Positions 651 to 17,630 of a stretch of DNA of 17,630 bases are shown here, one piece after another. The stretch's first letter is position 1; every line of letters begins with the position of its first letter. Position numbers and translations under genes: made by a program. The DNA comes from Paraspadella gotoi (Eukaryota > Animalia > Chaetognatha), in assembly GCA_051294375.1 (NCBI GenBank), contig JBJCIZ010000020.1:1-17630 (forward strand), in the 5' to 3' direction. A model generated the notes under the pieces. The model did not search any database and had not been told where the DNA came from. It saw nothing but the letters and a program-made list of their open reading frames with translations.

Positions 651-1314
651 AGCGCGGGATTTTTGTCGGTAGAAGTCTCGGAAACAAGATAGGGATGTTA
701 GAAAATCATGGATAATGCGAATTTTTATACATTCTATACATAACTAACACTCAGTTCTAATAAATAAAATTTTTCATGGTTTTTATTAATTGATCATATT
801 TCGACATGTGGTATGTAATAAAATATGGGGTGGGCTGAGTCCTGGTCGCCGGCGTTGGTGATGTAGTTTTAATTCCGTAAAAGAGCGTAGTTTCCGATGA
901 TTACAGAGTGTGGTAAATGGCGTGTCCACACTCGTCCTGACAGGAATCCTTATCCCAGTTCCACGTATTTAATTATTATTAAATCTGAAATGAGAACAAG
1001 AACTATTAGAACAAGGGTAATTGCAGTATCTACTTATTACTCAGTATCACTTATTTACACAAAATAATCAATGCATGTCAAAATATGAAGCAGTAAAAAA
1101 GCGCAAATAGAAAATCCACTTGGAAAAGTTGTAGATGAATCCACAAAATGTTGTGAGTTTGTAATCCACTTTAAATTGAGACCCTCTTTGGCACCCCAAG
1201 TCTTGAGTTATTAAGCCTTCAAGTCTTACTAGACTTTAAACCCGGAAATTATTTTAACCCTTAAGTCCTATGGGACTTTTAACCACCTTAGTCTTTAGAG
1301 ACTATTATAATTTG

Positions 1315-1409
1315 GGACTTAGACGTTTTCAGTCTCTCCTGGACTTGAACGTTTTTTATCTTCTCGGACTTAGACGTTTTCAGTCTCTCCTGGACTTGAA
1401 CGTTTTTTA
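1315..1409. repeat. 44-bp direct repeat x2 (period 51) inside the LTR, each with two GGACTT..ACGTTTT sub-units
   Basis: ggacttagacgttttcagtctctcctggacttgaacgtttttta at 1315 and 1366. Counterpart at about 15815-15910. Confidence 0.9.
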
Positions 1410-1587
1410 AGAACCTTTTCCAGCCGGACAGAGTTTCACCTTACACACCAGAGGGTCTCAGCAGACTCTCCCAGAGGTCTGCAGTGCTCCTCCTTATATA
1501 GACACCTTCTGGGTCACATGATCAGCCCTTGGGTCTAGCTCTTGCATTTTGGAGGGCTAAATCAACTATCTTGTTGGTTTTTACTAA

Positions 1588-1835
1588 TGCTTTAGCTATT
1601 CTTTGGCTTTTGCCAGTGCTAACCTAAAAGTTTAGGGTCATTAAAATTATAACTGCTTTTGCTTTTGCTAAAGCTACTTAAATTAGAGAAGCTCATTAAA
1701 GTTCCCTCTGCTTTTGCTTTTGCCTTAGCCAATTCAATTAGATAAGCCTATTATAATTCTGTCTTGCTTTTGCTCTTGCTTTAGCTAAAGTTTAGTCTCA
1801 TTGTTAATTGCTTTTCTTTAGGAAAGCTATTGCTT
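1588..1835. repeat. Degenerate ~55-bp tandem array in U3 (TGCTTTTGC core), enhancer-like
   Basis: tgcttttgc(t/c) cores at 1654, 1709 and 1765, with degenerate copies near 1604 and 1809. Upstream of the TATA box on the minus strand. Counterpart at about 16085-16330. Confidence 0.75.
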
Positions 1836-1916
1836 ATTAGTTAAATTATCAGTTATTCTATGAAACTATAAAATATATAAACTAATAAAAAATTACCCAC
1901 CTCATTTTTTATTACA

Positions 1917-1926
1917 TCCTCCCCGG
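1917..1926 (-). other. Polypurine tract (3' PPT)
   Basis: Minus strand CCGGGGAGGA directly abuts the TGTA start of the 3' LTR. Short, but in the canonical position. Confidence 0.8.
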
Positions 1927-2021
1927 TCTAGCTTTCTGCATGTCCTCATGCACATTTTAACAATTTTAGCTATATTTCACTCTGTCATCATCCATGTTGC
2001 TTTTTTCATTACACAGTGCCT

Positions 2022-3122
2022 TTAAAACCGGATGTCCATTAAGTATTCCTCCAGGGTCGTGGGCAAACCTAACTGATAATACTGATTAATTAGGACCCTT
2101 CCTTGGTTGTTTTTCACTAATTCATGTCTTATGGTCAGCTTAGATAAGTGTTTCAGCGATTTAACCAATCCTACTGGGTTTTCTCTCTCATCATCTCCTG
2201 TCATATACTCCACCATCTTCCTTGCAACAAACTCGTGGTGTGAATGCTTTGCCGCCTGCCAAGTTGATATTTTCTTGGTTGCTGCTGCATTAACATAGGC
2301 GGTATCTTCTAAGTTTCCTCCCGCTCTATACACTCCTTTTATCATCCTTAGATCACCTACATGGGAAGCGTTCCACATTGGGGTTGCCTGGAAAATATTC
2401 TTACTTAGTATTTTTGTTACTGGGATATCCAATATTGCCTCAGTTACTTTACGGTTTCCTTTGTTAACAGCATAATGAAGCACTGTATTTTGATTCTTAT
2501 CCCCTTGATTAATATCAGCTCCCTGTTTCGTTGCCAATTGTATTACTTCAATGATAAATTCATCATCCAGATTATTAATACATAAATTCATCAGAAATGT
2601 ACGCCCTGTATAAGCATCCTGTTCTTCAGTTGGCACTCCCTTCCCTAGCAATATCTCATATAATCGTAAATATGCAATTTCTGAGTTAGATGCCAGTATA
2701 TGTAAGAGAGTTTCACCATGTGTATTCTTTACTTTATAGTCATCCTCACCCATTCTGCTGCTAATTAGTTCTATAATTACTCTTGCTTTTGCATCATATT
2801 TTTTTCTTAATATTTTTGCCAAAGATATATTTCCCGAGTAATCAGTTTTCATTACATTTCCTCCTCGTACAAGCATCTGTTCCACAATATTTATTCTTTT
2901 CCTAGTCACGGCTATGTGCAATGGCGTTTGGCCATCATGGAACCTTATTTCATTAGGGTCGAACCCTTCTTCAAGTAACCTTTTAGTTACTCTTTCTCTT
3001 CCATATTCCGCTGCCATATGTAAGGCACCATTCATTTTTTCTCGTAATGCGAGCTCAATTGCTTCGTCATCTCTGCCGCCCAGGAATTTAACGTATAGTC
3101 CATAATTTGTTAGCGGAAACAT
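2022..3122 (-). CDS. Ankyrin-repeat protein with C-terminal SOCS box (ASB-like)
   Basis: Ankyrin motifs GALHMAA, GQTPLHIAV, GETLLHILA, GRTFLMNLC, NTVLHYAV, ATPMWNAS. The C-terminus SLKHLSKLTIRHEL...LGLPTTLEEYL fits a SOCS/BC box. First ATG is at 3122; the track start at 3158 is a TTG. Confidence 0.88.
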   Translation of the reverse strand: MFPLTNYGLYVKFLGGRDDEAIELALREKMNGALHMAAEYGRERVTKRLLEEGFDPNEIRFHDGQTPLHIAVTRKRINIVEQMLVRGGNVMKTDYSGNISLAKILRKKYDAKARVIIELISSRMGEDDYKVKNTHGETLLHILASNSEIAYLRLYEILLGKGVPTEEQDAYTGRTFLMNLCINNLDDEFIIEVIQLATKQGADINQGDKNQNTVLHYAVNKGNRKVTEAILDIPVTKILSKNIFQATPMWNASHVGDLRMIKGVYRAGGNLEDTAYVNAAATKKISTWQAAKHSHHEFVARKMVEYMTGDDERENPVGLVKSLKHLSKLTIRHELVKNNQGRVLINQYYQLGLPTTLEEYLMDIRF

Positions 3123-3284
3123 ATTTACTACACCTAAGAATAAAGAAATGCATGCCAAATCATTTATTTAGAACAACATATTTGTAGAACTTGTTCTACA
3201 TTCCCCCCCCCCGGACAAAACCTCGAACCATAAAACAAAACAAAAATTTTTATCACTTAATCATTTAATTTCCACTATTTTAAT

Positions 3285-4886
3285 TTACAGATCAAGTTTT
3301 TTCGGCTCTTTCAGTGATTTCCTATTTCTCAATCGTTTATTCCAACTTAATTCTTGGTCATTCTTCTCCTTAATCACTAACTCCTCCGTCTCTTTGTTAA
3401 CTTCCTCCTTGCAGTTGTCTGTATCGGAAGACGCCGGCCATTGGTGTCTCCCGTCTTCATCAGCGGACTCAGTCGACGTATCTGAGAAATCCGATTGATC
3501 CTCCATAATTATACCACCCTTTTGACATTCCCTTGGTTTTAATTCCCTAACCACTGCCTTCTTCAACTTCCTAGCATTCACTATCCTTTCAAAACCTGTC
3601 TCGTTATTTTTAATTACATATGTGGTTGGGGAAATGACCTTAATTACCGTATGATTAATCTCATAAGATTTAAATAGCTTTCCCGGTTGTAAAGGAGGTT
3701 TGAACCCCACCAACTCACCCACTACATAAGTCGGGACATTCGCTTTCTCTTTAGATTTCTCCCTTCTTAACTCCTGTCCCTCCTCATACCTTAAATTTAA
3801 CATTTCCATAACTTTTCTTCTTGCCCGTAATCGTTCTTCCAATTCATCCAAGATTTTTCTTTCTTTCCAACCGTGACTTTCTTTCCTGGTTAGAATAAGA
3901 TCTATTGGTTCAATAAGATTTCTCCCGTAAACAATAAAATTTGGCGATACCCCTGTTGCTGTATTTATACTACTATTATAGGCGCTGAATAAAAGGTTAA
4001 GCTGTTTTGGCCATTCTGAGATGTAACCATCCAGCATAACTGTCAAAATGTTGGAAATATTTCTGTTTACTTGTTCAATTAACCCATTAGCTGCAGGATT
4101 ATAAGATGCCGTTAGACATATATCAATTTGAAGACTCTCATAGATCGTTTTAAGTATTTTACCCGTGAACGTCCTTGCTCTGTCTGAGATAATGGCCCTC
4201 GGAACACCAAATCTTGGGATCCACGAAGAAATGATAACTTCTGCAACAACCGATGCTTCCATCGTGGGCGTAGGATACGCCATTACAAATCTCGATGCAT
4301 GATCTATAATCACCAGCACAAACCGGTTTTTAGATTGATATAGTATAGATCTGTCACTAACTGGTAAGGGGCCTTTAAAATCGTAAGATATGCATCCACC
4401 AATGTCATAACTATCCACACTGATAGGCTGGATCTCCGCCATTGGTTTATTTTTTGGACTTTTTCTACGTACACATAACGGACAAGTATTTATAAAGTCA
4501 GAAAGTCTAACAACCATTCTAGGAAAATAAAAACTTTTTACTAGCTTAAAATATGATTTACTTATTCCATAATGAGCGGATAAGGGACTACCGTGAGTAT
4601 GATATAAAATTTCGCTCACCTTAGACTCTGGTACAACAACGGCTTTGTCACCACCCGAAGTTTTTCTTAGCAGAACACCATCGTTGTCAATTTCTAAAGA
4701 CCGATAGACAGACTTGTACCCTTTGATAACCTCGTTCTTGAAATCGGGCTTTTGCCCCTCTAAAATGGCTTTCTTTACTAGTTTAATGCCTTCATCCTGG
4801 TTTTGAGCATACGCGAGTTCATTTTTTCGTGGTATGTTGGTTTCAAAAAGGTTGACAACATTATCATTCAATTGTAGTTCCATCAT
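3285..4886 (-). CDS. Stand-alone retroviral-type DDE integrase
   Basis: HHCC zinc domain (HGSPLSAH...CPLC). Catalytic D (SYDFKGP), D (ISDRA) and E (NGLIE) with 35 residues between the second D and E. Degenerate GPY/F-like segment (GKLFKSYEINHTVIKV) and acidic/basic tail. Confidence 0.95.
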   Translation of the reverse strand: MMELQLNDNVVNLFETNIPRKNELAYAQNQDEGIKLVKKAILEGQKPDFKNEVIKGYKSVYRSLEIDNDGVLLRKTSGGDKAVVVPESKVSEILYHTHGSPLSAHYGISKSYFKLVKSFYFPRMVVRLSDFINTCPLCVRRKSPKNKPMAEIQPISVDSYDIGGCISYDFKGPLPVSDRSILYQSKNRFVLVIIDHASRFVMAYPTPTMEASVVAEVIISSWIPRFGVPRAIISDRARTFTGKILKTIYESLQIDICLTASYNPAANGLIEQVNRNISNILTVMLDGYISEWPKQLNLLFSAYNSSINTATGVSPNFIVYGRNLIEPIDLILTRKESHGWKERKILDELEERLRARRKVMEMLNLRYEEGQELRREKSKEKANVPTYVVGELVGFKPPLQPGKLFKSYEINHTVIKVISPTTYVIKNNETGFERIVNARKLKKAVVRELKPRECQKGGIIMEDQSDFSDTSTESADEDGRHQWPASSDTDNCKEEVNKETEELVIKEKNDQELSWNKRLRNRKSLKEPKKLDL

Positions 4887-5032
4887 TTAAGGCTTAACTG
4901 GAACAGAAAGCGAACGATTAAACTATTTTAAACAGTGCAGTTGAATTACGGAATGAACTAATTAATATATTTATTTTTCCGTTTACTAATGTTAAGCACG
5001 TCATATGTACAGTCCCATTGGTACGGATAAAA

Positions 5033-6328
5033 TTAGTCAAATAATTCACCACCTTCAACAAAGTCAATGAACTGCCTTGTGTGTGTGCAAGGACATTCAA
5101 TTGCATCGTCATGGCAGTGGAAGCACTTTCCGCACCTTTTGATACCACAACATAATACCTTACATCCCGGATCCAAGTGTCTTACCTCCAAGCAGAAACA
5201 GTTGCTGCATGCCATTTTGGCATTATAAAAACGTACTAAGCTTGAGGGAAATCTCTCCTTTTCCCTTAACACCAAACATTCCTTAATCCATGGCCTCACG
5301 AATTTAGATATATTAACCTTGCACTTTTGGCTCATACGTATTTCTTTTAGTTTTTTCATATAAAATTTAACCCCACTTTCAATTTTCCTTCCAGTTTCCT
5401 CTTCCTTTTTCCCATCCTCTTTTTTGTCATCTTTCATGCTTTCTTTTTCATTCCCTTCTATATCCCTTTTGATACTTTTACTACGGTCATTTTCAGAAAA
5501 GCCTCTATTCTGATAACCAATCGTCCTGTATTCCCCCCTATTAGTATCAGTATTTTCTATTCCCCTAATTTCCTCTTGTGATACAGTAACAACAAGTTCC
5601 TCACCCCATTCCGATTCTTTATCACTATCATAGTCCTCACCCCCTTGACGACATAATCCCTGAACTTTATCCAGTTTATTCTGTACCATAGCTATTATTT
5701 CATTTTTATATTTATATATATCTTTGCTCTTCTCATACAACTCTTCCTGTATTATATCAACCTTTCCTTTCTCAATTTTCACCTTCTTCCACTCGGCTTC
5801 TAGTTTTTCCCGTTCTTTTATAAAAGTTGAGAGATCTACGTGCTCATAAAATGATTTTAAGAGTGGTTTCGTACGGGAAATCTCTTTAGGTAATGAAGCA
5901 GTATCATTGGGCCCCGGCGGAACTTGTTCAAATTCGCGCATTTCCCTCACTACATCATTAAGTACTCCTTTGGTTTTTAATATATACGTCAGGGTCTCGA
6001 TTTCTATCATATGTACTTTATCCAAACCAATATCTTTCTTTAAATATACCATAGCCCTCTCCTTTTCGACATTATTAAAACGTAATTTCGGATCTAGTTC
6101 CGTGACTAATTTTCTTAGCTCTCGGGAGTTATTAATTTCTTCTTGGAGTTGTTTATATAGTCTCCCGTTATCATCTTTTTCACACTCCAGTTGGATTTGA
6201 AGGATACGATAATCACTCTTGAGTCGCTCAATAGCTTTCTTACTTCTAGTTTCCGTCTCCCTTATCTTCTCCAGACAAGCGTCCAAATCGTTGGTCTCCA
6301 TTTTATATGATTCAATATTCTTTTCCAT
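5033..6328 (-). CDS. Hypothetical protein: coiled-coil N-terminus, charged linker, Cys/His-rich C-terminal domain
   Basis: 431 aa intact ORF in AT-rich DNA. E/K/L-rich heptad-like N-terminus. C-terminal CSNCFC...H...C...CC...CGKCFHCH...CPCTH. Confidence 0.8.
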   Translation of the reverse strand: MEKNIESYKMETNDLDACLEKIRETETRSKKAIERLKSDYRILQIQLECEKDDNGRLYKQLQEEINNSRELRKLVTELDPKLRFNNVEKERAMVYLKKDIGLDKVHMIEIETLTYILKTKGVLNDVVREMREFEQVPPGPNDTASLPKEISRTKPLLKSFYEHVDLSTFIKEREKLEAEWKKVKIEKGKVDIIQEELYEKSKDIYKYKNEIIAMVQNKLDKVQGLCRQGGEDYDSDKESEWGEELVVTVSQEEIRGIENTDTNRGEYRTIGYQNRGFSENDRSKSIKRDIEGNEKESMKDDKKEDGKKEEETGRKIESGVKFYMKKLKEIRMSQKCKVNISKFVRPWIKECLVLREKERFPSSLVRFYNAKMACSNCFCLEVRHLDPGCKVLCCGIKRCGKCFHCHDDAIECPCTHTRQFIDFVEGGELFD

Positions 6329-6506
6329 TCATCTGCTTAAATCAAGTTCACAAAAAATCAATAACATTATGGGAATAATTGAACGTGAGTAAATTAAAAT
6401 TAACTGACCGGACTTGATTGACCGTAATATAAGTAGAACAGAACTGCATCATTTAAGATTTTTATTAGTTCTGTATACCATACAATAAATATTTACAAAC
6501 AAAAGA

Positions 6507-7091
6507 TTAATTACTGTCGTCTTTATCTTCAGGCCCTATGTATGACAATACATTGTTCATTGATGACGTTAATTCTTCATGCATCATTACGTGAACTATC
6601 ATACGGTTTTTATTATTTCTAACCTTCTGACAATTAAAACACTGATATACTACAGGGTGAACCCTTTCCATATGCCTGTCTATATAAGTTCTATTAGGCA
6701 ATGGTTTATCACAAATATTACAACTAAAATTATGACGTTTTATGCGCCTTTTTAAACTTTTTGTCTTACTAAACCTTTTCTCGCATTCCAAGCACTGGTC
6801 CGTCTTATTTTCCGCCAACAGTCCGTAACGTTTCAAGCGCGGGGCTCTACCGAATCTCAACTTCTCGCTTTGCGACGTCATACTTCCTTCGTCCGTGATC
6901 ATGTGCGTTGACTCCGCACTTTCGACACCACCCATGAGCCTCATTCGGTTCTCGTTCGTCTAATCATTCTTACGTGGACGATCATCTTCCACGCTGGCGC
7001 GGGTTGGACTTAGCGCTTCGACGTCCGCTCTCATTGTCCGTTTCCTTGTATCAGGATTGATTAACCATATTTTGCTCTGGGGCATGGCCAT
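6507..7091 (-). pseudogene. Second three-finger C2H2 zinc-finger gene (ZnF-B), interrupted by an in-frame TAG
   Basis: The frame of track ORF 6507-6944 extends upstream to ATG 7091 (MAMPQSKIWLINPD...) through a single TAG at 6960-6962. Fingers CLEC...RIKRH (first His replaced by Arg), CNIC...HMERVH and CFNC...HVMMH. Confidence 0.72.
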
Positions 7092-7408
7092 TATTTCTGA
7101 CAAACACGTAATCTGTCAGTTAATTGTAAAAAAAAAGACGGTCAGTGAATCCGAATGGGTTAAAAGAATATAATAAAAGTGAATGGCAAAACACACGGCA
7201 AAACACTCATGGAATAATAGCCAATAATAAAAAAAAGAAAGACCGCGTTGGCCGTTTAATAACATTGTTACTCCTAAAACAAGAATAGCAAAGATGTAAA
7301 AAGGGTGGCTTGGCCATGGAAATATAGGAACAAGATCATTGACATTTCTGTCAACATACAGAATTAATGAAAATTGTGTCCAACAGAACGTAAAGAATCA
7401 CGTTTAGA

Positions 7409-7609
7409 TTAAAAAACTAAAAACTCCCGTTGAGTCACGAATCTTTCAGAACCAAAATATAATTGATTAAAATAATATATCAAAGCCACCAGCATTGGTG
7501 AACGAATTAAAAAAGAGGTAGTATGTTGAAATAAAAAATAAAAAACGATCACTTTGATCCACCCCATACTCTTCAGCATCTGTAAAACTAGGATCAATTC
7601 GTCATTCAT
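7409..7609 (-). CDS. Candidate small hydrophobic protein (66 aa)
   Basis: ATG overlaps the ZnF-A stop (ATGAATGA). Two hydrophobic stretches, though T-richness alone could produce these. Confidence 0.3.
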   Translation of the reverse strand: MNDELILVLQMLKSMGWIKVIVFYFLFQHTTSFLIRSPMLVALIYYFNQLYFGSERFVTQREFLVF

Positions 7610-8321
7610 GAATTTTCACTTTCGCGGCAATTTTGCGCGCCTCTTGGGAAAATTCCCGATGCAGTATCACATGGAGCGTAACTGAACTGCCCTCCCGAAA
7701 TTGCTTTCCACACACCAAGCATTCGTATTGTTTCGGGTGATACGCTTTATTGTGCAGTTCATACATCAACCGGTTCTTTATTTTTCTTTCACAATGTGTA
7801 CAAGTGTAAGAGTGGCATTTTAAGTGTCCGTTCCTTGCGTGAGGCGTCGAGAAAGTTTCTTGACACTGCTGACAATCATAGACAGTGGCGCCTTCGTTTT
7901 CTTCACCGCTTGCATCATCAGGCTTCTCAGTCTTTGTGTTGGCATTCACCGCGTAGGTTCCCACGTTTTCAATCCGCTGCCTTTTGTGCGGGGGAATCTC
8001 GCTGATTACAATGACGTCCGCCTCTCCCTTGACGACCGTTTCGTCTTCCCAAGCCTCTTCTTTTAGTGGTTCGCCGAGCTGCTTTTCGGGCGGAATGTGT
8101 AGATTCTTCAGACTCTCAGCTGGGCTCCCGAGTTTCTCCGTGTCCTTAGCTTCCTCATTCGCCGCTGCTGGATCATTGGCTCTGTTCCAACACATCCACG
8201 GATCTGTTCTAGAGGACATGGGCGCTTGCTCCAGTTCTCCGAGGATTCCGTCCGCATCTATGTTGCCCGTCAAGGATGCGTAGGTCGCCAGCGAGTGATG
8301 CCGATCTGCGACGCGTTCCAT
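7602..8321 (-). CDS. Three-finger C2H2 zinc-finger protein (ZnF-A) with acidic/disordered N-terminus
   Basis: Fingers CQQC...HLKCH, CTHC...HNKAYH and CLVC...HVILH. Start codon in GCCATGG Kozak context. Confidence 0.88.
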   Translation of the reverse strand: MERVADRHHSLATYASLTGNIDADGILGELEQAPMSSRTDPWMCWNRANDPAAANEEAKDTEKLGSPAESLKNLHIPPEKQLGEPLKEEAWEDETVVKGEADVIVISEIPPHKRQRIENVGTYAVNANTKTEKPDDASGEENEGATVYDCQQCQETFSTPHARNGHLKCHSYTCTHCERKIKNRLMYELHNKAYHPKQYECLVCGKQFREGSSVTLHVILHREFSQEARKIAAKVKIHE

Positions 8322-8421
8322 GGCGTATTGATCATATCCGCCACCCGTAGGGGCGCTATCGAGCTGTTGAATTTATTTATACGCCCTTATTATCAACGCC
8401 AAAAACACTGCCCCCAACCCG

Positions 8422-8645
8422 TTTATTCCTTTATTGATTTATTCATCTATTTATTTATTTCTTCATTTATTCGTTCATCTATTTATTTATTCATTTAATT
8501 TATTCATTTATTTACTTATTTCTTAAATACTACTCTTCTATTCAATCCATTCTATTATTTATCTATTTTAAACTGCCTCTAAATAACTAACTCCTCTCAC
8601 TCATAACTATTATTAAACTAATTACTAATTATTTATTTATTCTGA
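8422..8645. repeat. Low-complexity (TTTA/TTCA)n tract
   Basis: Repeated tttattta/ttcattta units upstream of ZnF-A. Confidence 0.8.
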
Positions 8646-9318
8646 ACTAAACTACACCATGCTTAATTATACTTCATGCTTTAACTACTCAGATTTTCCT
8701 ATCCCAAACCTTCAACCCAGACACTAACCAACGCTGTTGGGATCATCAGGTTTATCTCTTCCGACGGGTCATAATCATCAGGCGTGTACAACGGGTCCTC
8801 CGGCGACGTTTCGTTGAGTATCGGTTCCATCTTTTCGTCACAACGGGATAATTGGTTACACCACGAATCTCCGGTACCGTTAGAGCAGAACAATTCGTTC
8901 AGTCGCGGAGACGTTTTGAAGAAACACTAAGACGTTTCAGTTTATAATACGAGTTCCTTGGTTGTTTAAATCGCACAATTAAGTTTCACCCAAGCTCGGC
9001 GGCTTGCGATAATTATAATATTCCCAACCTGTTCAAAGAATGAGCAAAACCGACTTCATCTTTCGTTGTTTCAATTTACAAAGTAATCATCAATTTTTAA
9101 CCCTTTTTTCTTTTCACGCAACTTTTACAGAAATTTTACGACAGCGGTTAGTGTTTAGACTAAGTTCACACAAAAACTAAACTCGTCTTTGAACGGAACG
9201 TACTAACAGAGCCACATGATAATTCATTATTACCGTAATAATAGACATCGCGCGTCTATGTTTCTATGAACAGAACTTTGGACGGAACATAATAACTAAA
9301 AAATTACAACTATAGTTA

Positions 9319-10107
9319 TTACCGAAACAATAAGGCTTGTGCGTTTAACAGTTTCAGGGGGGTCTTGTACCATTCTACTTCAACTACATTTACTCGAATG
9401 CCGAAAAATACGGAGGGGATGTACCTATTTGTACTCAGACGATTAAACCATCCTAAATTAGGTATGTTCTGAGGCAAAATACTAATAGATTCACGATGAT
9501 CAATAAAAATTTTATCACTACGGACATGCAAGTCCATTCCAAAATGTAAAATACTAGCTAAATTTTCTACTTGTTTCATACTTAATCTTCCATTATAAAT
9601 TAAGTACTTACCAACATTGGAATGTTGTATGTTCTGCGCTAGAGAGTATAACAACCAATACTCTTGGAAGTCTGACATAATTAATCCTTTACCGAATTGT
9701 AAGACTTCTGCAAATACACAACCACACGAACTAACTTTTCCTGTGAGCTCAATAGAGGCAAATTGATATTTTCCGTTATCTGTAGCTTCTTTAAACCATC
9801 TCACTAATCGTAATATGTCTTCCACCTCATTCATCTCTGTTAAACGTCTAGAAATAATAATATGTACATGCTGATAAGCAGCGCTTTCAAATGCCGCCTG
9901 TATCGGCCAGAGTTCCTCTGTTTCGCACAGTGTGAGGATTAATGTTTTTCTAGGGAGGACGTTGAACAGTGTAGAGCTCTCTACTTGGATTTCCAAGACG
10001 CTTTCGAAGATCATTGACGCTTCGGCCGCCGCCATCTTGTCTCGAGTCGGGAGATACGCCATAATATCTCGTTTCACGTCCGCCGGTAATTCTCCGATTG
10101 TAGTCAT
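9319..10107 (-). CDS. F-box domain protein
   Basis: The N-terminus IGELPADVKRDIMAYLPTRDKMAAAEASMIF follows the F-box pattern (LP..v...I..YL...D). The remaining ~220 aa were not recognised. Confidence 0.75.
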   Translation of the reverse strand: MTTIGELPADVKRDIMAYLPTRDKMAAAEASMIFESVLEIQVESSTLFNVLPRKTLILTLCETEELWPIQAAFESAAYQHVHIIISRRLTEMNEVEDILRLVRWFKEATDNGKYQFASIELTGKVSSCGCVFAEVLQFGKGLIMSDFQEYWLLYSLAQNIQHSNVGKYLIYNGRLSMKQVENLASILHFGMDLHVRSDKIFIDHRESISILPQNIPNLGWFNRLSTNRYIPSVFFGIRVNVVEVEWYKTPLKLLNAQALLFR

Positions 10108-10208
10108 CTGAGGAGGAATTAAAATTTTCTATCAATATACGTCTATTACAATTATAACCGTTACTAATTAATTATAGGGGCAAGGTTAACCGTACACTCT
10201 TGTCATCA

Positions 10209-10442
10209 CTAAAAACCGAATAAGTAAGTTTGACAGAAAATTTCATAGGCAGCGGCACCTATACCTGGCGATAATATAATATACGTACGAATTACGTAAC
10301 AAAACCTCCAGCCTTTTGAGGTTTTCATTGTAAAATTAAACCAGACGATCGGGATTTTCCAAGGACCACAAGGATTTTTCACTGAGAAAAGCCGGTGTCT
10401 TAGTCTGGACCGTCTAAGGATGACCACCCTTCCCTTTTTCAT
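10209..10442 (-). CDS. Candidate small basic protein (77 aa)
   Basis: ATG start with a CAG 9 nt upstream. Arg/Lys-rich N-terminus MKKGRVVILRRSRLRHR. Same strand as all element genes. Confidence 0.4.
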   Translation of the reverse strand: MKKGRVVILRRSRLRHRLFSVKNPCGPWKIPIVWFNFTMKTSKGWRFCYVIRTYIILSPGIGAAAYEIFCQTYLFGF

Positions 10443-10682
10443 TTTAGTTGGCTGGCCGGGCCGGATATAAAATTTTCCCTTAGGTCACCTTATAAACCCA
10501 TGACCAATAGCCGCGGTTTTCTAACGACCACAAGTGCGCACCACCCTGCGTCCACTTCACCCTCGTCTCTCTATAATTCAATATTGAATTACAACCATTA
10601 AAATAAACACAATAGTAGGTTAATCGCCGTCACTAAATTATCCCAGGCTTGGCACCACCCCTGCCATTTAATGCTTTCCTTA

Positions 10683-13631
10683 CTACAGTTCCTCTACATC
10701 TTTAGAAGCAAGAATCCGAAAACTACCCTCTTTTCCTCCTTGCTTCCTTTTCCAGACAAATCTAACCAATCCCACTCCGATATTTCCTTCCAACTCCGTT
10801 TCCTTTTGCATTTTTTTCAGTGATCGTCTAAGTTGTACTTCTTTACCCTCCCCATAATTAACTTCTACTACTTCATTATTTATTATTAACTCCTGATTTT
10901 CGTCAAAATCTTCCTTAGTGGGTTTTTCCACTTTAAACCATGATCTTAAGATAGGGCTACCATAATCAGTATAAAGCCTCAAAATGGGCTTTTCCATTTT
11001 AACCGCCATTCTTTCCTCCTCGTTGGCTTCAAATCCATACGGAACTCTACTCAGAATGTCAGCTACAATCATTTCCCTACTGTCCCCAGGTTTATGGTGA
11101 ACCTCAAAGTTAAATTGAGATAGAAAATTTAACCATCTGCTAATCTTTTGAGAGGAGTCTCTCATAGTAGAAACATATCTTAAACTACTATGGTCTGAGA
11201 AGACAATAAAGGGGGATGTTAAGTAATGTCTATATTTTTTAACCCAATGGGCAATAGCAAAACACTCTTTCTCCGTTGTACTCCACGAAACTTCGGCTGC
11301 CTTCAGCGTGCGCGATCCATAAGCTAATAAACTTAATTCTCCGTCAGGTTTTAATTGCGACAGAGTAGCGCCGATCCCTTTTCCTGATGCATCGGTAGTT
11401 AATATCATGGGGAAATTAGGATCATAATAATTTCGTATAGGGGCACTTATTAATTTTTGTTTTAAGGTATCCATGGCAACTTGACACTCATCCGTCCATC
11501 TAAATGGAACACCTTTTCTTGTTAGATTAATAATGGGAGCTAAAATCTGACTATGAGATTTAATAAAAGTCCTATAATAATTACAAATCCCAAGGAACCT
11601 TTGGACGCCTTTAACATTTTTAGGTATAGGAAACTCAGTAATTGCGTCAACTATATGTTTACACGTTTTTATGCCTTTATCAGAAATTACAAAACCTAAA
11701 AATTCTACCGACGATTGAAATAATTTACATTTTACCGCTCTTAATTTCATACCTCCCTCTTTTAATTTTTTAAGTACCCGGATTAATCTCTCATGTGCCT
11801 CTTCTAAAGTTTCCCCAAAAATTATCACGTCGTCTATGTAAACGACAGCCTCCTTCCAACACAACTCTCCTAGAACTTCCTCCATTAATGCTTGATAACT
11901 TGTTGGCCCCGAATTTAAGCCAAACGGAAGTCTTTTAAACTCAAATAGCCCTTTCCTAGTAGAAAAGGCCGTTATTGGCCGCGATTCCTCCTCCAAGGGG
12001 CATTGATGATACCCCTGGAAAAGATCTAACGTGTGAAACCATTTCTGGCCACGAAATTGATCTAACAGTTGTTCTATATTAGGCAACGGATGGGCTAATG
12101 GAGCAACGCACAATGAATTAACTGCTCGGTAATCAATGCACAGTCGCCACCGGTTCTTCCGTTCCTCCCAAGATAAAACTATTCTGGAGTTCCAATTACT
12201 ATTGGAGGGCTGTACTATATCTTGTTTTATCAGTTTCTGGACTTCCTTATCTATAAAGGCATTCTGTTCTTCACTAAATTTACGATTTTTCTGCTTTACA
12301 GGATTAGTATTAGGTTTAAGGATTATTTTATGTCTAGTCTTAGTAGTATGGCCTACTGGTCGATCCTCCCACTGAAAGACTTCTTTATGCTCATCTAATA
12401 TTTTTCTTACTTTAGCTTTTTCCTCATCACTAAGCTCTGATTTTTCTAGCCCAAAATTTACCTCATCTAGTCTTTTACTATCAAAATCCTCATAGACCAT
12501 AGTATCTTCTACACACTCGTCACTCTCTAAACACTCAGCGAATTCTTCCTCATAATTTTTCCCATCCCCCACTGTATTTATTAATATAGGCATAGGACGT
12601 GAAAAAGAAAATGTGCCAAAATCCTCACCTTTCACTAAAGCCAACCTACGGGTCCCTTGGTTTATTACTTGAGTAATTACCACTGGCTTAGCTATGGTCA
12701 AAACCCTACTAGCATTAATACCATATTTCCATATATCTTTAAATGGCTGAATAATACCTTCGCCCCCTTCATTTTTTAGGCCCTCAATTTCTACCCTAAT
12801 ATCACAAGCAGATTGTGGTGGCAGAACGACATCCTCTGCTATTCTAACCTTTCTTACACCCCTCTGATCCTTATACATAAAATTTATATGCATTTGCCCC
12901 GCCTTAGGTTGGAAGCAAGTACCATCTGCTAAATTAACATTAAATGAATGACGGCATATCTCATCTAATCCCAATAGACCTTGAATTTCTAATCCCCTTA
13001 TAACATAAAATTTAATAGTAGCTGAATAATTACGTTTAAAACCATAAAATATAACAGGTAATTTTACGTATCCTATGCACTCGATCTTTGTCCCATTAAC
13101 TGCCTCAAACTGTGAACCATGAGGGTGTAAAATATACCTCTTATCTGAATTAATCATATCATACATTTCTTCTGATAATAAAGTTTTCACGCTACCAGTA
13201 TCAAAGCCCAACCTAGTTTCTATACCCCTTACTCCTACAGTAATATACGTGTAAGTAGGGAGAGACTGGAAATCGTCATAAACTTCTTCTTCTACTATTT
13301 CCAGATCCTTATCAATCTGCGGGCTTTCTTCCTCAACCCACCCAAAAATTTCCTCGGCCCCAGTGATTTTTTCAATTTCTACATTTGAAATTTTTTCCTC
13401 ATGGGACTTATTTTCTTTCTTACTTAACTCTTCATTAACTACTCTTACTTTGGGGCTCTCCTTTACTTCTAAACTTTGTTCCCCGTTTATTTTTGGGATT
13501 ATATTTTTCTCAGTTTGATTGTTTAAATTAAACCGGACCTTTTTCTTTACATCCGTTACCCCTTTTATTTCGCTTTCTAGTTTATTTTTTATCCCAGGCT
13601 GCCCCCCTCGCGGGGGGCTATTTAGTTTAAA
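10683..13631 (-). CDS. pol: Pol: aspartic protease, reverse transcriptase and RNase H, with no integrase; expressed as Gag-Pol by frameshift
   Basis: Frame is stop-free from 13643 to 10683; the track start at 13211 is an internal TTG. Protease: ITVGVRGIETRLGFDTGS. RT: WRLCIDYRAVN, LDLFQGYHQ, LPFGL, YIDD. RNase H: TTDASGKGIGA, TEKECFAI, SDH, ADILSR. Confidence 0.96.
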   Translation of the reverse strand, partial: FKLNSPPRGGQPGIKNKLESEIKGVTDVKKKVRFNLNNQTEKNIIPKINGEQSLEVKESPKVRVVNEELSKKENKSHEEKISNVEIEKITGAEEIFGWVEEESPQIDKDLEIVEEEVYDDFQSLPTYTYITVGVRGIETRLGFDTGSVKTLLSEEMYDMINSDKRYILHPHGSQFEAVNGTKIECIGYVKLPVIFYGFKRNYSATIKFYVIRGLEIQGLLGLDEICRHSFNVNLADGTCFQPKAGQMHINFMYKDQRGVRKVRIAEDVVLPPQSACDIRVEIEGLKNEGGEGIIQPFKDIWKYGINASRVLTIAKPVVITQVINQGTRRLALVKGEDFGTFSFSRPMPILINTVGDGKNYEEEFAECLESDECVEDTMVYEDFDSKRLDEVNFGLEKSELSDEEKAKVRKILDEHKEVFQWEDRPVGHTTKTRHKIILKPNTNPVKQKNRKFSEEQNAFIDKEVQKLIKQDIVQPSNSNWNSRIVLSWEERKNRWRLCIDYRAVNSLCVAPLAHPLPNIEQLLDQFRGQKWFHTLDLFQGYHQCPLEEESRPITAFSTRKGLFEFKRLPFGLNSGPTSYQALMEEVLGELCWKEAVVYIDDVIIFGETLEEAHERLIRVLKKLKEGGMKLRAVKCKLFQSSVEFLGFVISDKGIKTCKHIVDAITEFPIPKNVKGVQRFLGICNYYRTFIKSHSQILAPIINLTRKGVPFRWTDECQVAMDTLKQKLISAPIRNYYDPNFPMILTTDASGKGIGATLSQLKPDGELSLLAYGSRTLKAAEVSWSTTEKECFAIAHWVKKYRHYLTSPFIVFSDHSSLRYVSTMRDSSQKISRWLNFLSQFNFEVHHKPGDSREMIVADILSRVPYGFEANEEERMAVKMEKPILRLYTDYGSPILRSWFKVEKPTKEDFDENQELIINNEVVEVNYGEGKEVQLRRSLKKMQKETELEGNIGVGLVRFVWKRKQGGKEGSFRILASKDVEEL
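13601..13631 (-). promoter_or_regulatory. -1 programmed ribosomal frameshift signal (gag-pol)
   Basis: Minus strand T TTA AAC slippery heptamer (13631-13625) in the gag frame just before the gag TAA. It is followed by a 6-nt spacer and the hairpin GCCCCCC-GCGA-GGGGGGC. The -1 frame is open, by manual translation, through to pol. Confidence 0.92.
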
Positions 13632-14971
13632 GGAACCGTGGCATTAGAATTTACCGGTTGTAACGCTGGGACTTGTGAGGGCAAGCCCGTCTGATTATCC
13701 TGTCCCCTTACGCGGTTTTGAGCCTCCCCCAATTCTGTGTTCGCTGGCAACCTAAAAAGTCCTCTTTCTCTATCCTCCCTTTGTATTTTTATAAGGTAAT
13801 TGTCTGCTAATTGTAGAGGACAGTCCCTTCTCAAATGCCCTTTTCTTTCACAACGATAACATGTCACGTTCCTATCCCTATTCCAGTTACTGTCACTTCG
13901 TCTCCTCATATTTCCATTATTACCATTATTATAATTATTGATATTCCTATTATAATTATTCTCATTACCCCAGTTATTGTTATTGATAGGGTTATTATTT
14001 TTACCTTGATTTTGACCTTCCTCATTCACTTTCCCTATAAAACTATTTTGTGCGATAAGCATTTCATCAGCCTTTTCTATGAGCTGATCTAAAGAGGCTT
14101 CTTGACCCACGGTCGCTTTTAAAATCTTACGGTCGGTCAGTGCAACTGATTCATATACCTTAAATCTCATCATCTCAACTGCAAAAGTTCCGGCCGGATC
14201 CATGCCTGCCCTTCGAATATACATGCGACACCTATCAATAAATGTAGTTATACTTTCCTTCGGGTGTTTTTTAGCAGAAAGAAAATTTTCTTTATTTTTC
14301 TGCTCAGACTGAGGATCCAGCTTCCTTCTTAACGCTTGAATTAAAATCTCAGTGCTTATTTTTTCCCTTTCCGTTAGGGTATCATAAGCCCTTTTTGCGG
14401 CCCCATTCAGGCTAGGTGGTAAGGCCGCTACGAACTTTCTTATATCCCAACCGTTACAAGTAATACATGCCTGTACCTTATCCACCCACTCATCAAATTC
14501 CAATCCCACTCCGTCATACGATGGTAACTTCTGATTATTAATTGCCCGCGAATTTTCTTGAGAAATACGTAACCTTTCAAATTCTGATGCCAACGATTCC
14601 ATATCATCCCTATGATATTTTTGTTGATTAAGAATTAAATCCCTATATGTATCCTTATCCTCCTCCGCTTGCTTTTGAATTATATTTATATTCCGCTGCA
14701 TATTCTCATTTTGACACCTTAATACGTCGGAGATCATTTTACCCATCTCTTTTAACGCTTCGCCGATCTCACCCATTTTCAGTACTTTCCCTTTACTCCC
14801 GTCGGTTTCCTTCAAACCCTGGGAATTCTCAGTTACAAATATTTCTTGAGGGAGTTCTAACTCACTCTCCCCTAACCCGCTAGTATCCAGTGAAACCTTA
14901 AATTTTTTAACCGCACTATTAGTTAATTTAGCTGCCTGCCTTTTCGTTAATCTCGATTTTTTATTTTCCAT
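13622..14971 (-). CDS. gag: Gag (coiled-coil N-terminus, capsid-like region, Asn-rich linker, CCHC zinc knuckle)
   Basis: 449 aa ORF. Zinc knuckle CYRCERKGHLRRDC (CX2CX4HX4C). Capsid-like LPSYDG...FDEWV motif. Located between PBS and pol. Confidence 0.93.
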   Translation of the reverse strand: MENKKSRLTKRQAAKLTNSAVKKFKVSLDTSGLGESELELPQEIFVTENSQGLKETDGSKGKVLKMGEIGEALKEMGKMISDVLRCQNENMQRNINIIQKQAEEDKDTYRDLILNQQKYHRDDMESLASEFERLRISQENSRAINNQKLPSYDGVGLEFDEWVDKVQACITCNGWDIRKFVAALPPSLNGAAKRAYDTLTEREKISTEILIQALRRKLDPQSEQKNKENFLSAKKHPKESITTFIDRCRMYIRRAGMDPAGTFAVEMMRFKVYESVALTDRKILKATVGQEASLDQLIEKADEMLIAQNSFIGKVNEEGQNQGKNNNPINNNNWGNENNYNRNINNYNNGNNGNMRRRSDSNWNRDRNVTCYRCERKGHLRRDCPLQLADNYLIKIQREDRERGLFRLPANTELGEAQNRVRGQDNQTGLPSQVPALQPVNSNATVPLN

Positions 14972-15007
14972 AAAATTTAAACTCTTACGTATTTATATTT
15001 CTTATTC

Positions 15008-15268
15008 TTAAGAGTATGTAACACCACAATTAATATCGAGCGACCCGTCACTCACCCTCGTAACAACAATATTATGTATTAAAACCCGTTCAGGCACTGG
15101 CGAAACTGGCAAAGGATTTAACGCGTTCTGTATTAACCTTCTTATTATCTCAGGGTTGATATTGTGAACTCCTGTCACTCTACCCAAATTATTACGTTGG
15201 TTACTATTACTATTATTATTGTTACCGGAACCTTGCCCACTACTATCACACGGTTGCCTTAAAACCAT
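15008..15268 (-). CDS. Candidate 86-aa upstream ORF between PBS and gag
   Basis: ATG at 15268 (MVLRQPCDSS...), open to 15008, filling most of the leader. No recognisable domain. Confidence 0.4.
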   Translation of the reverse strand: MVLRQPCDSSGQGSGNNNNSNSNQRNNLGRVTGVHNINPEIIRRLIQNALNPLPVSPVPERVLIHNIVVTRVSDGSLDINCGVTYS

Positions 15269-15271
15269 AGG

Positions 15272-15279
15272 ACTCACCG
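15272..15279 (-). promoter_or_regulatory. Candidate major 5' splice donor
   Basis: CG|GTGAGT, with the intron starting at 15277, 9 nt downstream of the PBS match. This is where retroviral major donors lie. Confidence 0.65.
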
Positions 15280-15286
15280 ATTCGAA

Positions 15287-15301
15287 CCACGTTGGGCGCC
15301 A
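15287..15301 (-). other. Primer-binding site complementary to the tRNA-Lys(CUU) 3' end
   Basis: Minus strand reads TGGCGCCCAACGTGG, 2 nt after the 5' LTR end. This matches the first 15 nt of the known Lys1,2-type PBS TGGCGCCCAACGTGGGGC. Confidence 0.93.
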
Positions 15302-15303
15302 GT

Positions 15304-16413
15304 TGTAATAAAAATATGGGGGTGGGCTGAGTCCTGGTTGCCGGCGTTGGTGATGTAGTTTTAATTCCGTAAAAGAGCGTGGTTTCCGACGATTACAGAG
15401 TGTGGTAAATGGCGTGTCCACACTCGTCCTGACAGGAATCCTTATCCAAGTTCCACGTATTTAATTATTATTAAATCTGAAATGAGAACAAGAAATATTA
15501 GAACAAGGGTAATTGCAGTATCTACTTATTACTCAGTATCACTTATTTACACAAAAGAATCAATGTATGTCAAAATATGAAACAGTAAAAAAGCGCAAAA
15601 TAGAAAATCCACTTAGAAAAGTTGTAGATGAATCCACAAAATGTTGTGAGTCTGTAATCCACTTTAAATTGAGACCCTCTTTGGCACCCCAAGTCTTGAG
15701 GTATTAAGCCTTCAAGTCTTACTAGACTTTAAACCCGGAGATTATTTTAACCCTTTTTAGTCCTATGGGACTTTTAACCACCTTAGTCTTTAGAGACTCA
15801 GCTATTATAATTTGGGACTTAGACGTTTTCAGTCTCTCCTGGACTTGAACGTTTTTTATCTTTCTTCGGACTTAGACGTTTTCAGTTCTCTCTCTGACTT
15901 GAACGTTTTTTAAGACCTTTTCCAGCCGGACAGAGTTTCACCTTACACACCAGAGGGTCTCAGCAGACTCTCCCAAGGTCTGCAGTGCTCCTCCTTATAT
16001 AGACACTTCTGGTCACATGATCAGCCCTGGGTCTAGCTCTTGCATTTTGGAGGGCTAAATCAACTATCTTGTTGGTTTTTTACTATGCTTTAGCTATTCT
16101 TTGGCTTTGCCAGTGCTAACCTAAAAGTGTTTAGGTCATTTAATTAAACTTGCTTTGCTTTTGCTAAAGCTACTTAATTAGAGAAGCTCATTAAAGTTCC
16201 CTCTGCTTTTGCTTTTGCCTTAGCCAATTCAATTGATAAGCCTATTATAATTCTGTTCTGCTTTTGCTTCTTGCTTTAGCAAGTTTAGTCTCATTGTTAA
16301 TTGCTTTTCTTTAGGAAGAAAGCTATTGCTTATTAGTTAAATTATCAGTTATTCTATGAAACTATAAAATATATAACTACTAATAAAAAATTACCCACCT
16401 CATTTTTATTACA
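15304..16413 (-). repeat. 5' LTR
   Basis: Starts TGTAATAAAA at 15304 and ends TTTTATTACA at 16413. Near-identical to 814-1916 and directly adjacent to the PBS. Confidence 0.96.
15995..16001 (-). promoter_or_regulatory. LTR TATA box (copy in 3' LTR at 1494-1500)
   Basis: Minus strand CTATATAAGG, with a candidate AGT initiation site about 32 nt downstream (15969). Confidence 0.65.
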
Positions 16414-17630
16414 AATATAAAAATAAGTGGTTTGATATTGACTCGATCGAAAAATACTGATTAATACAAACTTTTAAGAAGAAAGTATGTGAATGATATT
16501 AATTTTATGTACATTACATATAACACTCTTGCATAGTCTGATTAATGTCGTTGCTAAGAAAAATGATTGTTTGACGAATCAGTCCGCACATTCTTAATGC
16601 GGAAGTCACCGATTCAACCGTATCGGTGATTTGATTCTTGTTAAATATTGAGTTGAATCATCACGAATAGGAATGCAATTTAATTCTTACTGTTAAATGG
16701 AATAGACAACTAACAAATTAAACTTATTAATTAATTAATTAACTTTGCATTCCCATTGGATTATTACTTAGCTGTTACTAAAATAAGTTGATCAATCGTT
16801 CTTAAATGTGACCTTTTCCGTAACCTTTTTGACCTTTTTGACTTTGGTCACCAGGAGGTCAGCGCCGCCTGTATTAGATTGTGTTCAGTCTCTCACTATG
16901 GTTACGCGCAATCATAGTATTTTTTTTTCAAATTTCTTTCATCATGTACCAACCTCCATCCTTGTCCATCTTTTCCAAAAAAAAAAACCTATTGAGATTG
17001 ATCAAAAAAATATATATAGTTATTTAATTATTATCATCTCCAATTATCAGTCCCACTTCTATCCACATCATAACTGACATTTTTATTTATTATTCCCGAC
17101 TTTACACATTTTCTTAATTAACATTATGCTAATAACTCAATGATCATTAATATTGGATAAGAAGTACTGATTTCTCAATTATTCCATATTAAAATTTAAA
17201 AAAATTCTTTTCTTTACAAAAAAGAACACAGAACAACATTACACGCGTGCAAGGCCGTCGAAGAGTATATTGAAAAGTCTAACGTGAGGTATGTGCAGCA
17301 TATAACAGGAAAAGCACAAAACAGTTGGAGAAAACAAATGTTTTATATTTTACTCATTTTCCCACCCATTTAAGTATTATATTTTTTTTTTCAAAGAATT
17401 AATTCAATTCCAATATTATCAAACAGTTTCTGTTATCATTTTGAGAATAATTCATTTGTTCTTAAGTTATAATATACTAAAAGTTAGATTTATAGAACAT
17501 CTAGAAGAGGAAAAATAATACCCAAGTTATTAAAGTCCGGTCAGTCAGTCACGTGTACATACTCATTGCATACGTGGTTAGCGTCCATCACCACATTCAC
17601 ACTAAATCTCAGCAGTGCGGTAAAATTTCC

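Follow-up and report, generated by a model that had tools for sequence, protein, structure and literature searches.

A stretch of DNA from the chaetognath Paraspadella gotoi (17,630 nucleotides (nt) of contig JBJCIZ010000020.1, assembly GCA_051294375.1; referred to here as the window) holds, with very little doubt, one Ty3/Gypsy long terminal repeat (LTR) retrotransposon of 15.6 kb, which occupies 814-16413 of the minus strand and has the anatomy that we have mapped below. The sequence supports the presence, inside this one LTR retrotransposon, of two distinct architectures of cullin-RING ubiquitin ligase adaptors, one of them an ankyrin-repeat protein that ends in a SOCS box and the other, with moderate support, a divergent F-box followed by a leucine-rich repeat (LRR)-like domain. 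A preliminary description of this DNA had placed open reading frames (ORFs) for two such adaptors at 2022-3122 and 9319-10107 and had assigned both to a single retrotransposon; both ORFs, of 366 and 262 amino acids (aa), respectively, were found at these positions on the minus strand, between the LTRs at 814-1916 and 15304-16413. Beyond that description, the analysis brought to light the LRR-like domain, a separation of the integrase from pol that is lineage-wide, an intron, signals of the splice type and a further three accessory genes. All features of the element that are given below are on the minus strand.

The ankyrin ORF (ANK; 2022-3122) resembles the ASB proteins in its layout, with an Ank_2 match above the Pfam cut-off (E 7.7e-23) and a match to SOCS_box at aa 320-362 that reaches 25.6 bits where the cut-off is 23.5 (E 1.5e-5), so that the C-terminal SOCS/BC box proposed in the preliminary description is upheld by profiles and is, as far as sequence can tell, well supported. 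The BC-box pattern [TSP]-L-x3-[CSA]-x3-hydrophobic, taken from PMC6232478, has a single match in the protein, at aa 322-331. When this pattern is followed by LPxxLxx[YF]L, a second half that was composed after inspection of the sequence, the combination occurs in none of 5000 shuffles. The cullin-box region reads LGLP and then TTLEEYL; against LPxP, which we take to be the Cul5-box motif, the last proline is present and the first is replaced by glycine, and this cullin box would presumably fit either Cul5 or Cul2. The 85 database matches of the ORF are generic ankyrins, the closest of which mostly share 20-36% identity with a part of the protein, and include neither a protein with the SOCS family nor an ASB orthologue; a recent host donor is therefore not seen among them.

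Nine sequencing runs from the one organism, belonging to three studies, each contain at least half of the sampled words of the window; one of these runs (X1) may be the source of the window DNA itself, and two others (X6 and X7) are identical data sets. In four runs we found a sister family from the same host in which an integrase is followed by an ankyrin gene, with the integrase-ANK-polypurine tract order colinear with that of the window. This family aligns to the window in short pieces only, at about 80-90% (e.g., 14 differences in 74 nt and 5 in 47 nt), and in runs X1 and X9 its length is conserved across 2254-2600. It also aligns to the spacer upstream of the ANK gene, which holds an internal copy of the polypurine tract (PPT) together with bases like those of the LTR start (3197-3214, as found by local alignment with the terminal PPT at 1917-1929). 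The ANK gene is thus bracketed by two PPT-like sites, an arrangement that suggests either capture at the boundary between PPT and 3' LTR or the presence of a second plus-strand primer.

The second adaptor ORF (9319-10107) is quite likely, on the strength of its modelled fold and its homologues, to encode a divergent protein of the FBXL type, with the F-box at about aa 4-40 and an LRR-like solenoid at about aa 37-225. A word-indexed search with this ORF gave nothing among 1851 candidates and sequence searches of the PDB gave nothing useful. HMMER, when run against 1.84 billion proteins, returned 26 matches, from which P0236 and P0237 were discarded as repeat artefacts; the 24 true homologues, many of them fragments, are 25-41% identical to the window protein, and by this measure the family is an old one that has been kept open. 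PF00646 is matched by 8 of the 25 members of the alignment and PF12937 by 5 of the 25, all below the cut-off, and an F-box, F-box-like or PRANC match falls at the N-terminus (starting at aa 3-23) in 11 of 15 homologues, these being 12 rows of the alignment plus 3 members of clusters that were picked for an expected intact start and are not independent of one another. The longest contig is 5168 nt for the F-box homologue P0220 and for the split-pol protein P0213 alike, which is no more than a hint, and a further comparison gave no second match of this sort. The family conserves a core of the form L-P-x-E-hydrophobic-x3-I-x3-L, in which L7 is hydrophobic in 13/14 sequences, P8 is kept in 12/14, the glutamate at position 10 in 11/14, I/L15 in 14/14 and L19 in 18/18, and it also conserves an unusual AAEA in the third helix of the F-box; the bare core pattern arises within the first 25 aa in 256 of 5000 shuffles. 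The ESM-Atlas gave a top score of 0.96, with nematode proteins as the nearest clusters and F-box families in 7 of the 8 rows listed.

An AlphaFold model of the same protein made with the alignment (pLDDT 92, pTM 0.90) has three helices at aa 9-35 followed by alternating strands and helices; a model made from the single sequence was poor (pLDDT 49.6) and was set aside. In a wide structural search LRR solenoids rank first, with Z 8.1-8.9 and a root-mean-square deviation (rmsd) of 3.7-4.5 over aa 37-226, and the best 10 fold matches are mostly such solenoids (Z 7.8-8.9, rmsd 3.7-5.0), the protein having no match to an LRR sequence family. FBXL2, FBXL17, FBXL5, TIR1, D3 and Dia2 align moderately well from the N-terminus onward (from residue 1-4), with Z 6.2-7.2 and rmsd 5-8. 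When the top 1000 Foldseek chains were re-aligned, 12 of the 18 best rows were F-box/LRR proteins, among them D3 (Z 7.8, rmsd 5.4, 215 residues aligned) and Skp2 (Z 7.0, rmsd 8.9, 194 residues aligned, covering 1-225 of the model). As a separate observation on the partner of F-boxes, Skp1 homologues (L081-L092) occur in IMG/VR contigs, several of which are labelled as giant-virus metagenome-assembled genomes.

The two adaptor ORFs lie among the parts of a retrotransposon. The 5' LTR (15304-16413) has TG...CA ends and terminal inverted repeats and aligns with the 3' LTR (814-1916); the pair, each of 1.1 kb, shares 1070 matches with 16 substitutions in 1086 aligned bases (Kimura two-parameter distance 1.5%) and differs also by 32 small indel events. 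A primer-binding site (PBS) that begins with TGG lies 2 nt inside the 5' LTR (15284-15301) and resembles what we take to be the 3' end of tRNA-Lys, and the terminal PPT precedes the 3' LTR. In reading order, the interior consists of a leader ORF, gag, pol, the 262-aa ORF, two C2H2 genes, a 431-aa ORF, integrase and the ankyrin ORF, so that five ORFs are extra to the usual complement, namely the F-box/LRR ORF, the ankyrin-SOCS ORF, the coiled-coil/Cys ORF and a pair of C2H2 zinc-finger genes. The gag ORF (13622-14971, 449 aa) has a CCHC zinc knuckle (zf-CCHC, 25.1 bits, above the cut-off; Retrotrans_gag, E 0.015). At its end, a UUUAAAC heptamer followed by a GC stem-loop forms a probable -1 frameshift signal (13596-13633), for which the stem-loop has z -2.56 and 3 of 200 shuffles fold equally well, and it is likely that gag and pol are joined by frameshifting there. 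Two contigs of run X1, covering 1887-8129 and 8181-15338, have equal depth (136.5 and 137.3) and differ from the window at 8 and 0 positions, respectively; both extend into an LTR, and the 51 nt that they leave unbridged sit within the open frame of one of the C2H2 genes (ZF2).

The element is a Ty3/Gypsy member by its LTRs and domain order and departs from that family in having a separate integrase; the split of integrase from protease (PR), reverse transcriptase (RT) and RNase H is arguably its most novel feature. The pol frame (10683-13643, 986 aa open) encodes protease (DTG), RT (YIDD) and RNase H and then stops, and integrase (IN) is encoded by a stand-alone ORF of 533 aa (3285-4886) with the HHCC and D169/D235/E271 (D,D35E) residues, an ATG of its own and an in-frame stop directly before it. 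The order gag, PR-RT-RNaseH-IN, with its catalytic motifs and with integrase 3' of RNase H, fits Ty3/Gypsy. The usual state in that family is an integrase within the Pol polyprotein; here the integrase ATG (4886) is separated from the pol stop (10683) by 5.8 kb of cargo. Because the in-frame stop abuts the integrase ATG, splicing to an acceptor-like site 12 nt upstream cannot yield a fusion of pol and integrase.

A search with the RT-RNaseH core, of which the best 120 of 848 matches were considered, identified 11 close pol relatives at 63-75% identity, the next match being at most 44% identical. The integrase family is absent from all 11, and all 11 terminate 76-147 aa past the core; the motif at the very end is similar in 9 of the 11. 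As every close relative stops after RNase H, the split is common to the lineage. The end of pol and the start of the stand-alone integrase match the RNase H-integrase join of each of the nine fused relatives that were tested (9/9). In a quickly computed tree with 50 rows (the window and the 49 that passed a length filter among the top 50 matches offered, with no named clade references), the 12 split-pol rows, i.e., the window and its 11 relatives, form one side of a branch 1.8 long with SH-aLRT 100. Viral and prokaryote contigs contained no pol relatives, and the 80 metagenome loci kept from 107 are all distant (28-42% identity), with a match to an accessory ORF in 0 of the 48 loci listed that are at least 4 kb long. 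Some of these distant metagenome Gypsy elements (L001, L004, L008, L010 and L042) have long ORFs of 800-1300 aa 3' of integrase. A lineage with its integrase outside Gag-Pol raises the question of how the enzyme gets to the particle or to the cDNA, and this question holds with or without any role of the adaptors in counter-defence.

Signals that could serve the expression of a separate integrase and of the accessory ORFs were found by pattern scan. A splice-donor-like site lies just past the PBS (15272-15278), where its use is inferred, and another lies at about 15056 within the leader ORF, there being 7 donor-like sites overall. Polypyrimidine-YAG acceptor-like sites occur within 16 nt of three of the four internal ATGs scored (F-box, integrase and ANK), as compared with 30 of 302 background ATGs; the 431-aa ORF fell below the threshold.

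The mechanism that we envisage begins with Gag-Pol, which would be made by -1 frameshifting on unspliced RNA, and with integrase and the accessory proteins, which would be made from spliced subgenomic mRNAs that carry the leader donor, as in complex retroviruses. The F-box would recruit Skp1-Cul1 and the SOCS box would recruit Elongin B/C with Cul5 or Cul2, and we predict that both boxes probably do bind their respective ligases. Substrates would be chosen for ubiquitylation by the LRR and ankyrin surfaces and, by analogy with viral adaptors, would be silencing or restriction factors of the host; provided that the ligases are bound, host defence proteins are the targets that we would favor. 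Viral ANK/BC and ANK/F-box adaptors suppress immunity (PMC6232478). By this analogy, the reading of the whole that we tentatively prefer is that the adaptors direct cullin-RING ligases of the host to those of its proteins that hold the element in check, i.e., that they act in counter-defence. More speculative is the wider suggestion of an undescribed "complex" LTR lineage, with an integrase in its own gene, an accessory program of spliced mRNAs, and SCF and Elongin-Cul5/2 adaptors that would destroy silencing or restriction factors, and it is with equal reserve that we would compare such a lineage to Vif and to the poxvirus ANK/F-box proteins as their transposon equivalents. If true, a transposon that encodes intact adaptors for two cullin ligases would show directly that such elements can act against the defences of the host at the level of proteins, and the substrates of the adaptors would name anti-transposon factors of the host, in the way that the substrates of Vif named APOBEC3 as a restriction factor.

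Several results weigh against this reading or against the steps that it requires. Nothing in the sequence names a substrate. The N-terminal F-box of the preliminary description is sustained by the sub-threshold matches of homologues and by the AlphaFold fold and is nonetheless weaker than had been implied, in that the window protein has no Pfam F-box match at E<=1 and its homologues all score below the cut-offs, at best 17.5 against 20.5 bits for F-box and 17.9 against 24.3 for F-box-like. The ESM-Atlas recognition value of 2220 is slightly low against the guide value of 2300, structural Z values of 6-9 are such as common arrangements also give, and Foldseek returned nothing at E<=0.001 from either PDB or viral structures, TIM-barrel enzymes being its top PDB rows. 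Among the runs, ANK has five differences, of which 3 are synonymous and 2 non-synonymous, a number that does not suffice for a test of selection, and those in the 431-aa ORF are 3 and 4, respectively, so that purifying selection is shown for neither. An in-frame stop upstream of the other C2H2 gene (ZF1) suggests that some of the cargo may be decaying. No joint from the leader donors to an adaptor acceptor occurs among the 15 of 26 joints that were listed, and contigs of X1, X5 and X9 continue through the ANK acceptor without a splice; that the adaptors have subgenomic mRNAs is thus something that we infer. A target-site duplication of 4-6 bp is also lacking, as the flanks at 809-813 and 16414-16418 differ.

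It is possible, though unlikely, that the adaptors are aimed inward, degrading the Gag, the free integrase or the coiled-coil protein of the element itself, or serving as the antidote in a toxin-antidote pair, with the purpose of limiting harm or (as an antidote) of making the host dependent on the element. Such a role is compatible with the support for both boxes and with the need of a free-standing integrase for control of its level, and it has a precedent in the F-box antidotes of C. tropicalis, which destroy their linked toxins via SCF (PMC12680543). However, none of the element's ORFs looks like a toxin or like a second copy of an essential gene, and the viral adaptors with like architecture target host immunity. 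It is likewise unlikely that the two proteins act as decoys or shields, i.e., that they bind Skp1 or Elongin C and occupy the ligases so that element proteins are stabilized, or that their LRR and ankyrin domains act free of any ligase. The divergence of the F-box with its AAEA third helix would suit this role, as would the glycine that stands at the first proline of the Cul5-box motif, and yet the core residues of the boxes are retained and both proteins have full substrate-binding domains, that of the F-box protein as modelled. Poxvirus ANK/BC proteins without a BC box still inhibit IRF-3 (PMC6232478), which is a further point in favor of this role.

A neutral origin, in which the adaptors are captured host genes carried as passengers and one or both boxes no longer work, seems to us rather improbable. 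The missing Pfam F-box match, the stop before ZF1 and the lack of a synonymous excess among the few variants are what one would look for in passengers, the intron and the duplicated PPT look like traces of capture, and F-box genes are enriched in transposon-rich regions (PMC12062965). On the other hand, with a single exception the ORFs stay open for 145-533 codons, the generic and partial nature of the ANK matches reveals no recent host donor, the sister family has retained the length of its ANK despite more than 20% DNA divergence, and the pol split is common to 12/12 members of the clade. Most unlikely is a mosaic locus, produced by nesting of insertions, by recombination between two of them or by faulty assembly, in which the adaptors would not be those of one element. 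Here the absent target-site duplication, the many 1-nt indels between the LTRs, the repeated flanking sequence and the interval 8129-8181 that no listed contig spans are set against genes that are all on one strand within a single LTR pair with PBS and PPT, a single pol and a single integrase that complement each other where RNase H and integrase usually join, two equally deep contigs that cover nearly the whole interior with their gap inside an open frame, and a pol split that relatives share.

To our knowledge, intracellular LTR retrotransposons usually encode only gag and pol, and the few extra ORFs that are known are env-like, enzymatic or concerned with RNA export. In the open text of PMC and bioRxiv, judged mostly by title and the start of the abstract, we found no LTR element that has an intact gene for an F-box or SOCS-box protein, nor one whose integrase is separate throughout its lineage, and a prior entry in subscription journals or repeat databases is possible. 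HIV Vif is a BC-box accessory gene of a retroelement, without ankyrin repeats and in a genome that has its integrase within Pol and also has env, and in complex retroviruses generally the accessory ORFs lie behind acceptors that are fed by a leader donor; the element described here differs from these in its separate integrase, in its ankyrin repeats and in having no env-like ORF that a Pfam family scan of the window ORFs could recognize. Among cellular proteins, the ASB family shares with the ANK ORF the order of ankyrin repeats and C-terminal SOCS box, and the FBXL family (Skp2, FBXL2/5/17, TIR1 and D3) shares with the 262-aa ORF the order of N-terminal F-box and LRR that is predicted for it, the identity to solved chains being 6-13%; unlike these, the adaptors of the window are encoded inside a transposon.

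The poxvirus ANK/BC and ANK/F-box (PRANC) proteins share with the element the pairing of ankyrin repeats with a C-terminal BC box and the presence in one genome of adaptors (predicted ones, in the element) for two cullins. Their carriers, however, are large DNA viruses, in which the F-box ends an ankyrin protein and the BC box is followed by neither a proline nor a cullin box (PMC6232478), whereas in the element the F-box precedes an LRR-like domain at the N-terminus and the SOCS box is present in full. Cer1, an env-less Ty3/Gypsy element of C. elegans, makes from a spliced mRNA the accessory protein CERV, which has coiled-coil and Cys-rich parts; its likeness to the 431-aa ORF in these two respects is loose, and the term "F-box" does not occur in the text of the paper (PMC10309623). 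The bdelloid rotifer LTR elements Vesta, Juno and TelKA have family-specific captured ORF3s, not env, that are reportedly expressed from spliced messages. The capture of non-env ORFs is thus a feature in common, but the bdelloid ORF3 is of the GDSL, DEDDy, env, transmembrane or coiled-coil type, the bdelloid pol includes integrase, and the terms "F-box", "ankyrin" and "ubiquitin" are absent from the text of the paper (PMC5408684). Telomeric transposable elements of Drosophila carry fragments of piwi, aub and the F-box gene CG12520 (140-235 bp; PMC13534243), which are likewise captured F-box sequence in a setting of host conflict, but as fragments and not as intact ORFs.

The remaining accessory ORFs lie between pol and integrase. 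ZF2 has a first exon of 34 codons with its ATG at 8830 (8729-8830), a GT-AG intron of 365 nt in phase 0 (8364-8728) and a second exon with three C2H2 fingers (7602-8363), the two exons together encoding 287 aa. The skip of 8364-8728 joins two open pieces in phase, and the X5, X6 and X7 contigs lack the intron; no such joint occurs in X1. We rejected a polymorphic insertion as the explanation of the 365-nt skip, given that its GT-AG ends are on the strand of the element and that the frame is preserved. The contigs without the intron may come from spliced RNA or from intron-less DNA copies, the type of these runs being a guess. ZF1 (6507-6944; 145 aa) has two C2H2 fingers by pattern. Its in-frame stop, at 6960-6962, parts it from a 51-codon open piece upstream (6960-7115), which has an acceptor-like site near 7116, and in this region contigs of other runs differ by 12-16 letters plus 7-19 gap letters. 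The 431-aa ORF (5033-6328), which has no family match, combines a charged N-terminus that is coiled-coil-like, as judged by composition only, with a C-terminus rich in Cys and His; as unspliced RNA that bears an intron must leave the nucleus, this ORF is a candidate for an export factor of the Rev or CERV kind.

The leader ORF upstream of gag (15008-15268, 86 aa) has no family match, and no tRNA gene or Rfam family match was found in the window. In run X5 a different insertion flank is joined at 15303. To the left of the element, 71-613 holds a GC-rich (54%) open frame of 180 aa, without a Pfam match, that is possibly part of a host gene or of another repeat, and the right flank is a repeat of very high depth in run X1 (about 2657).

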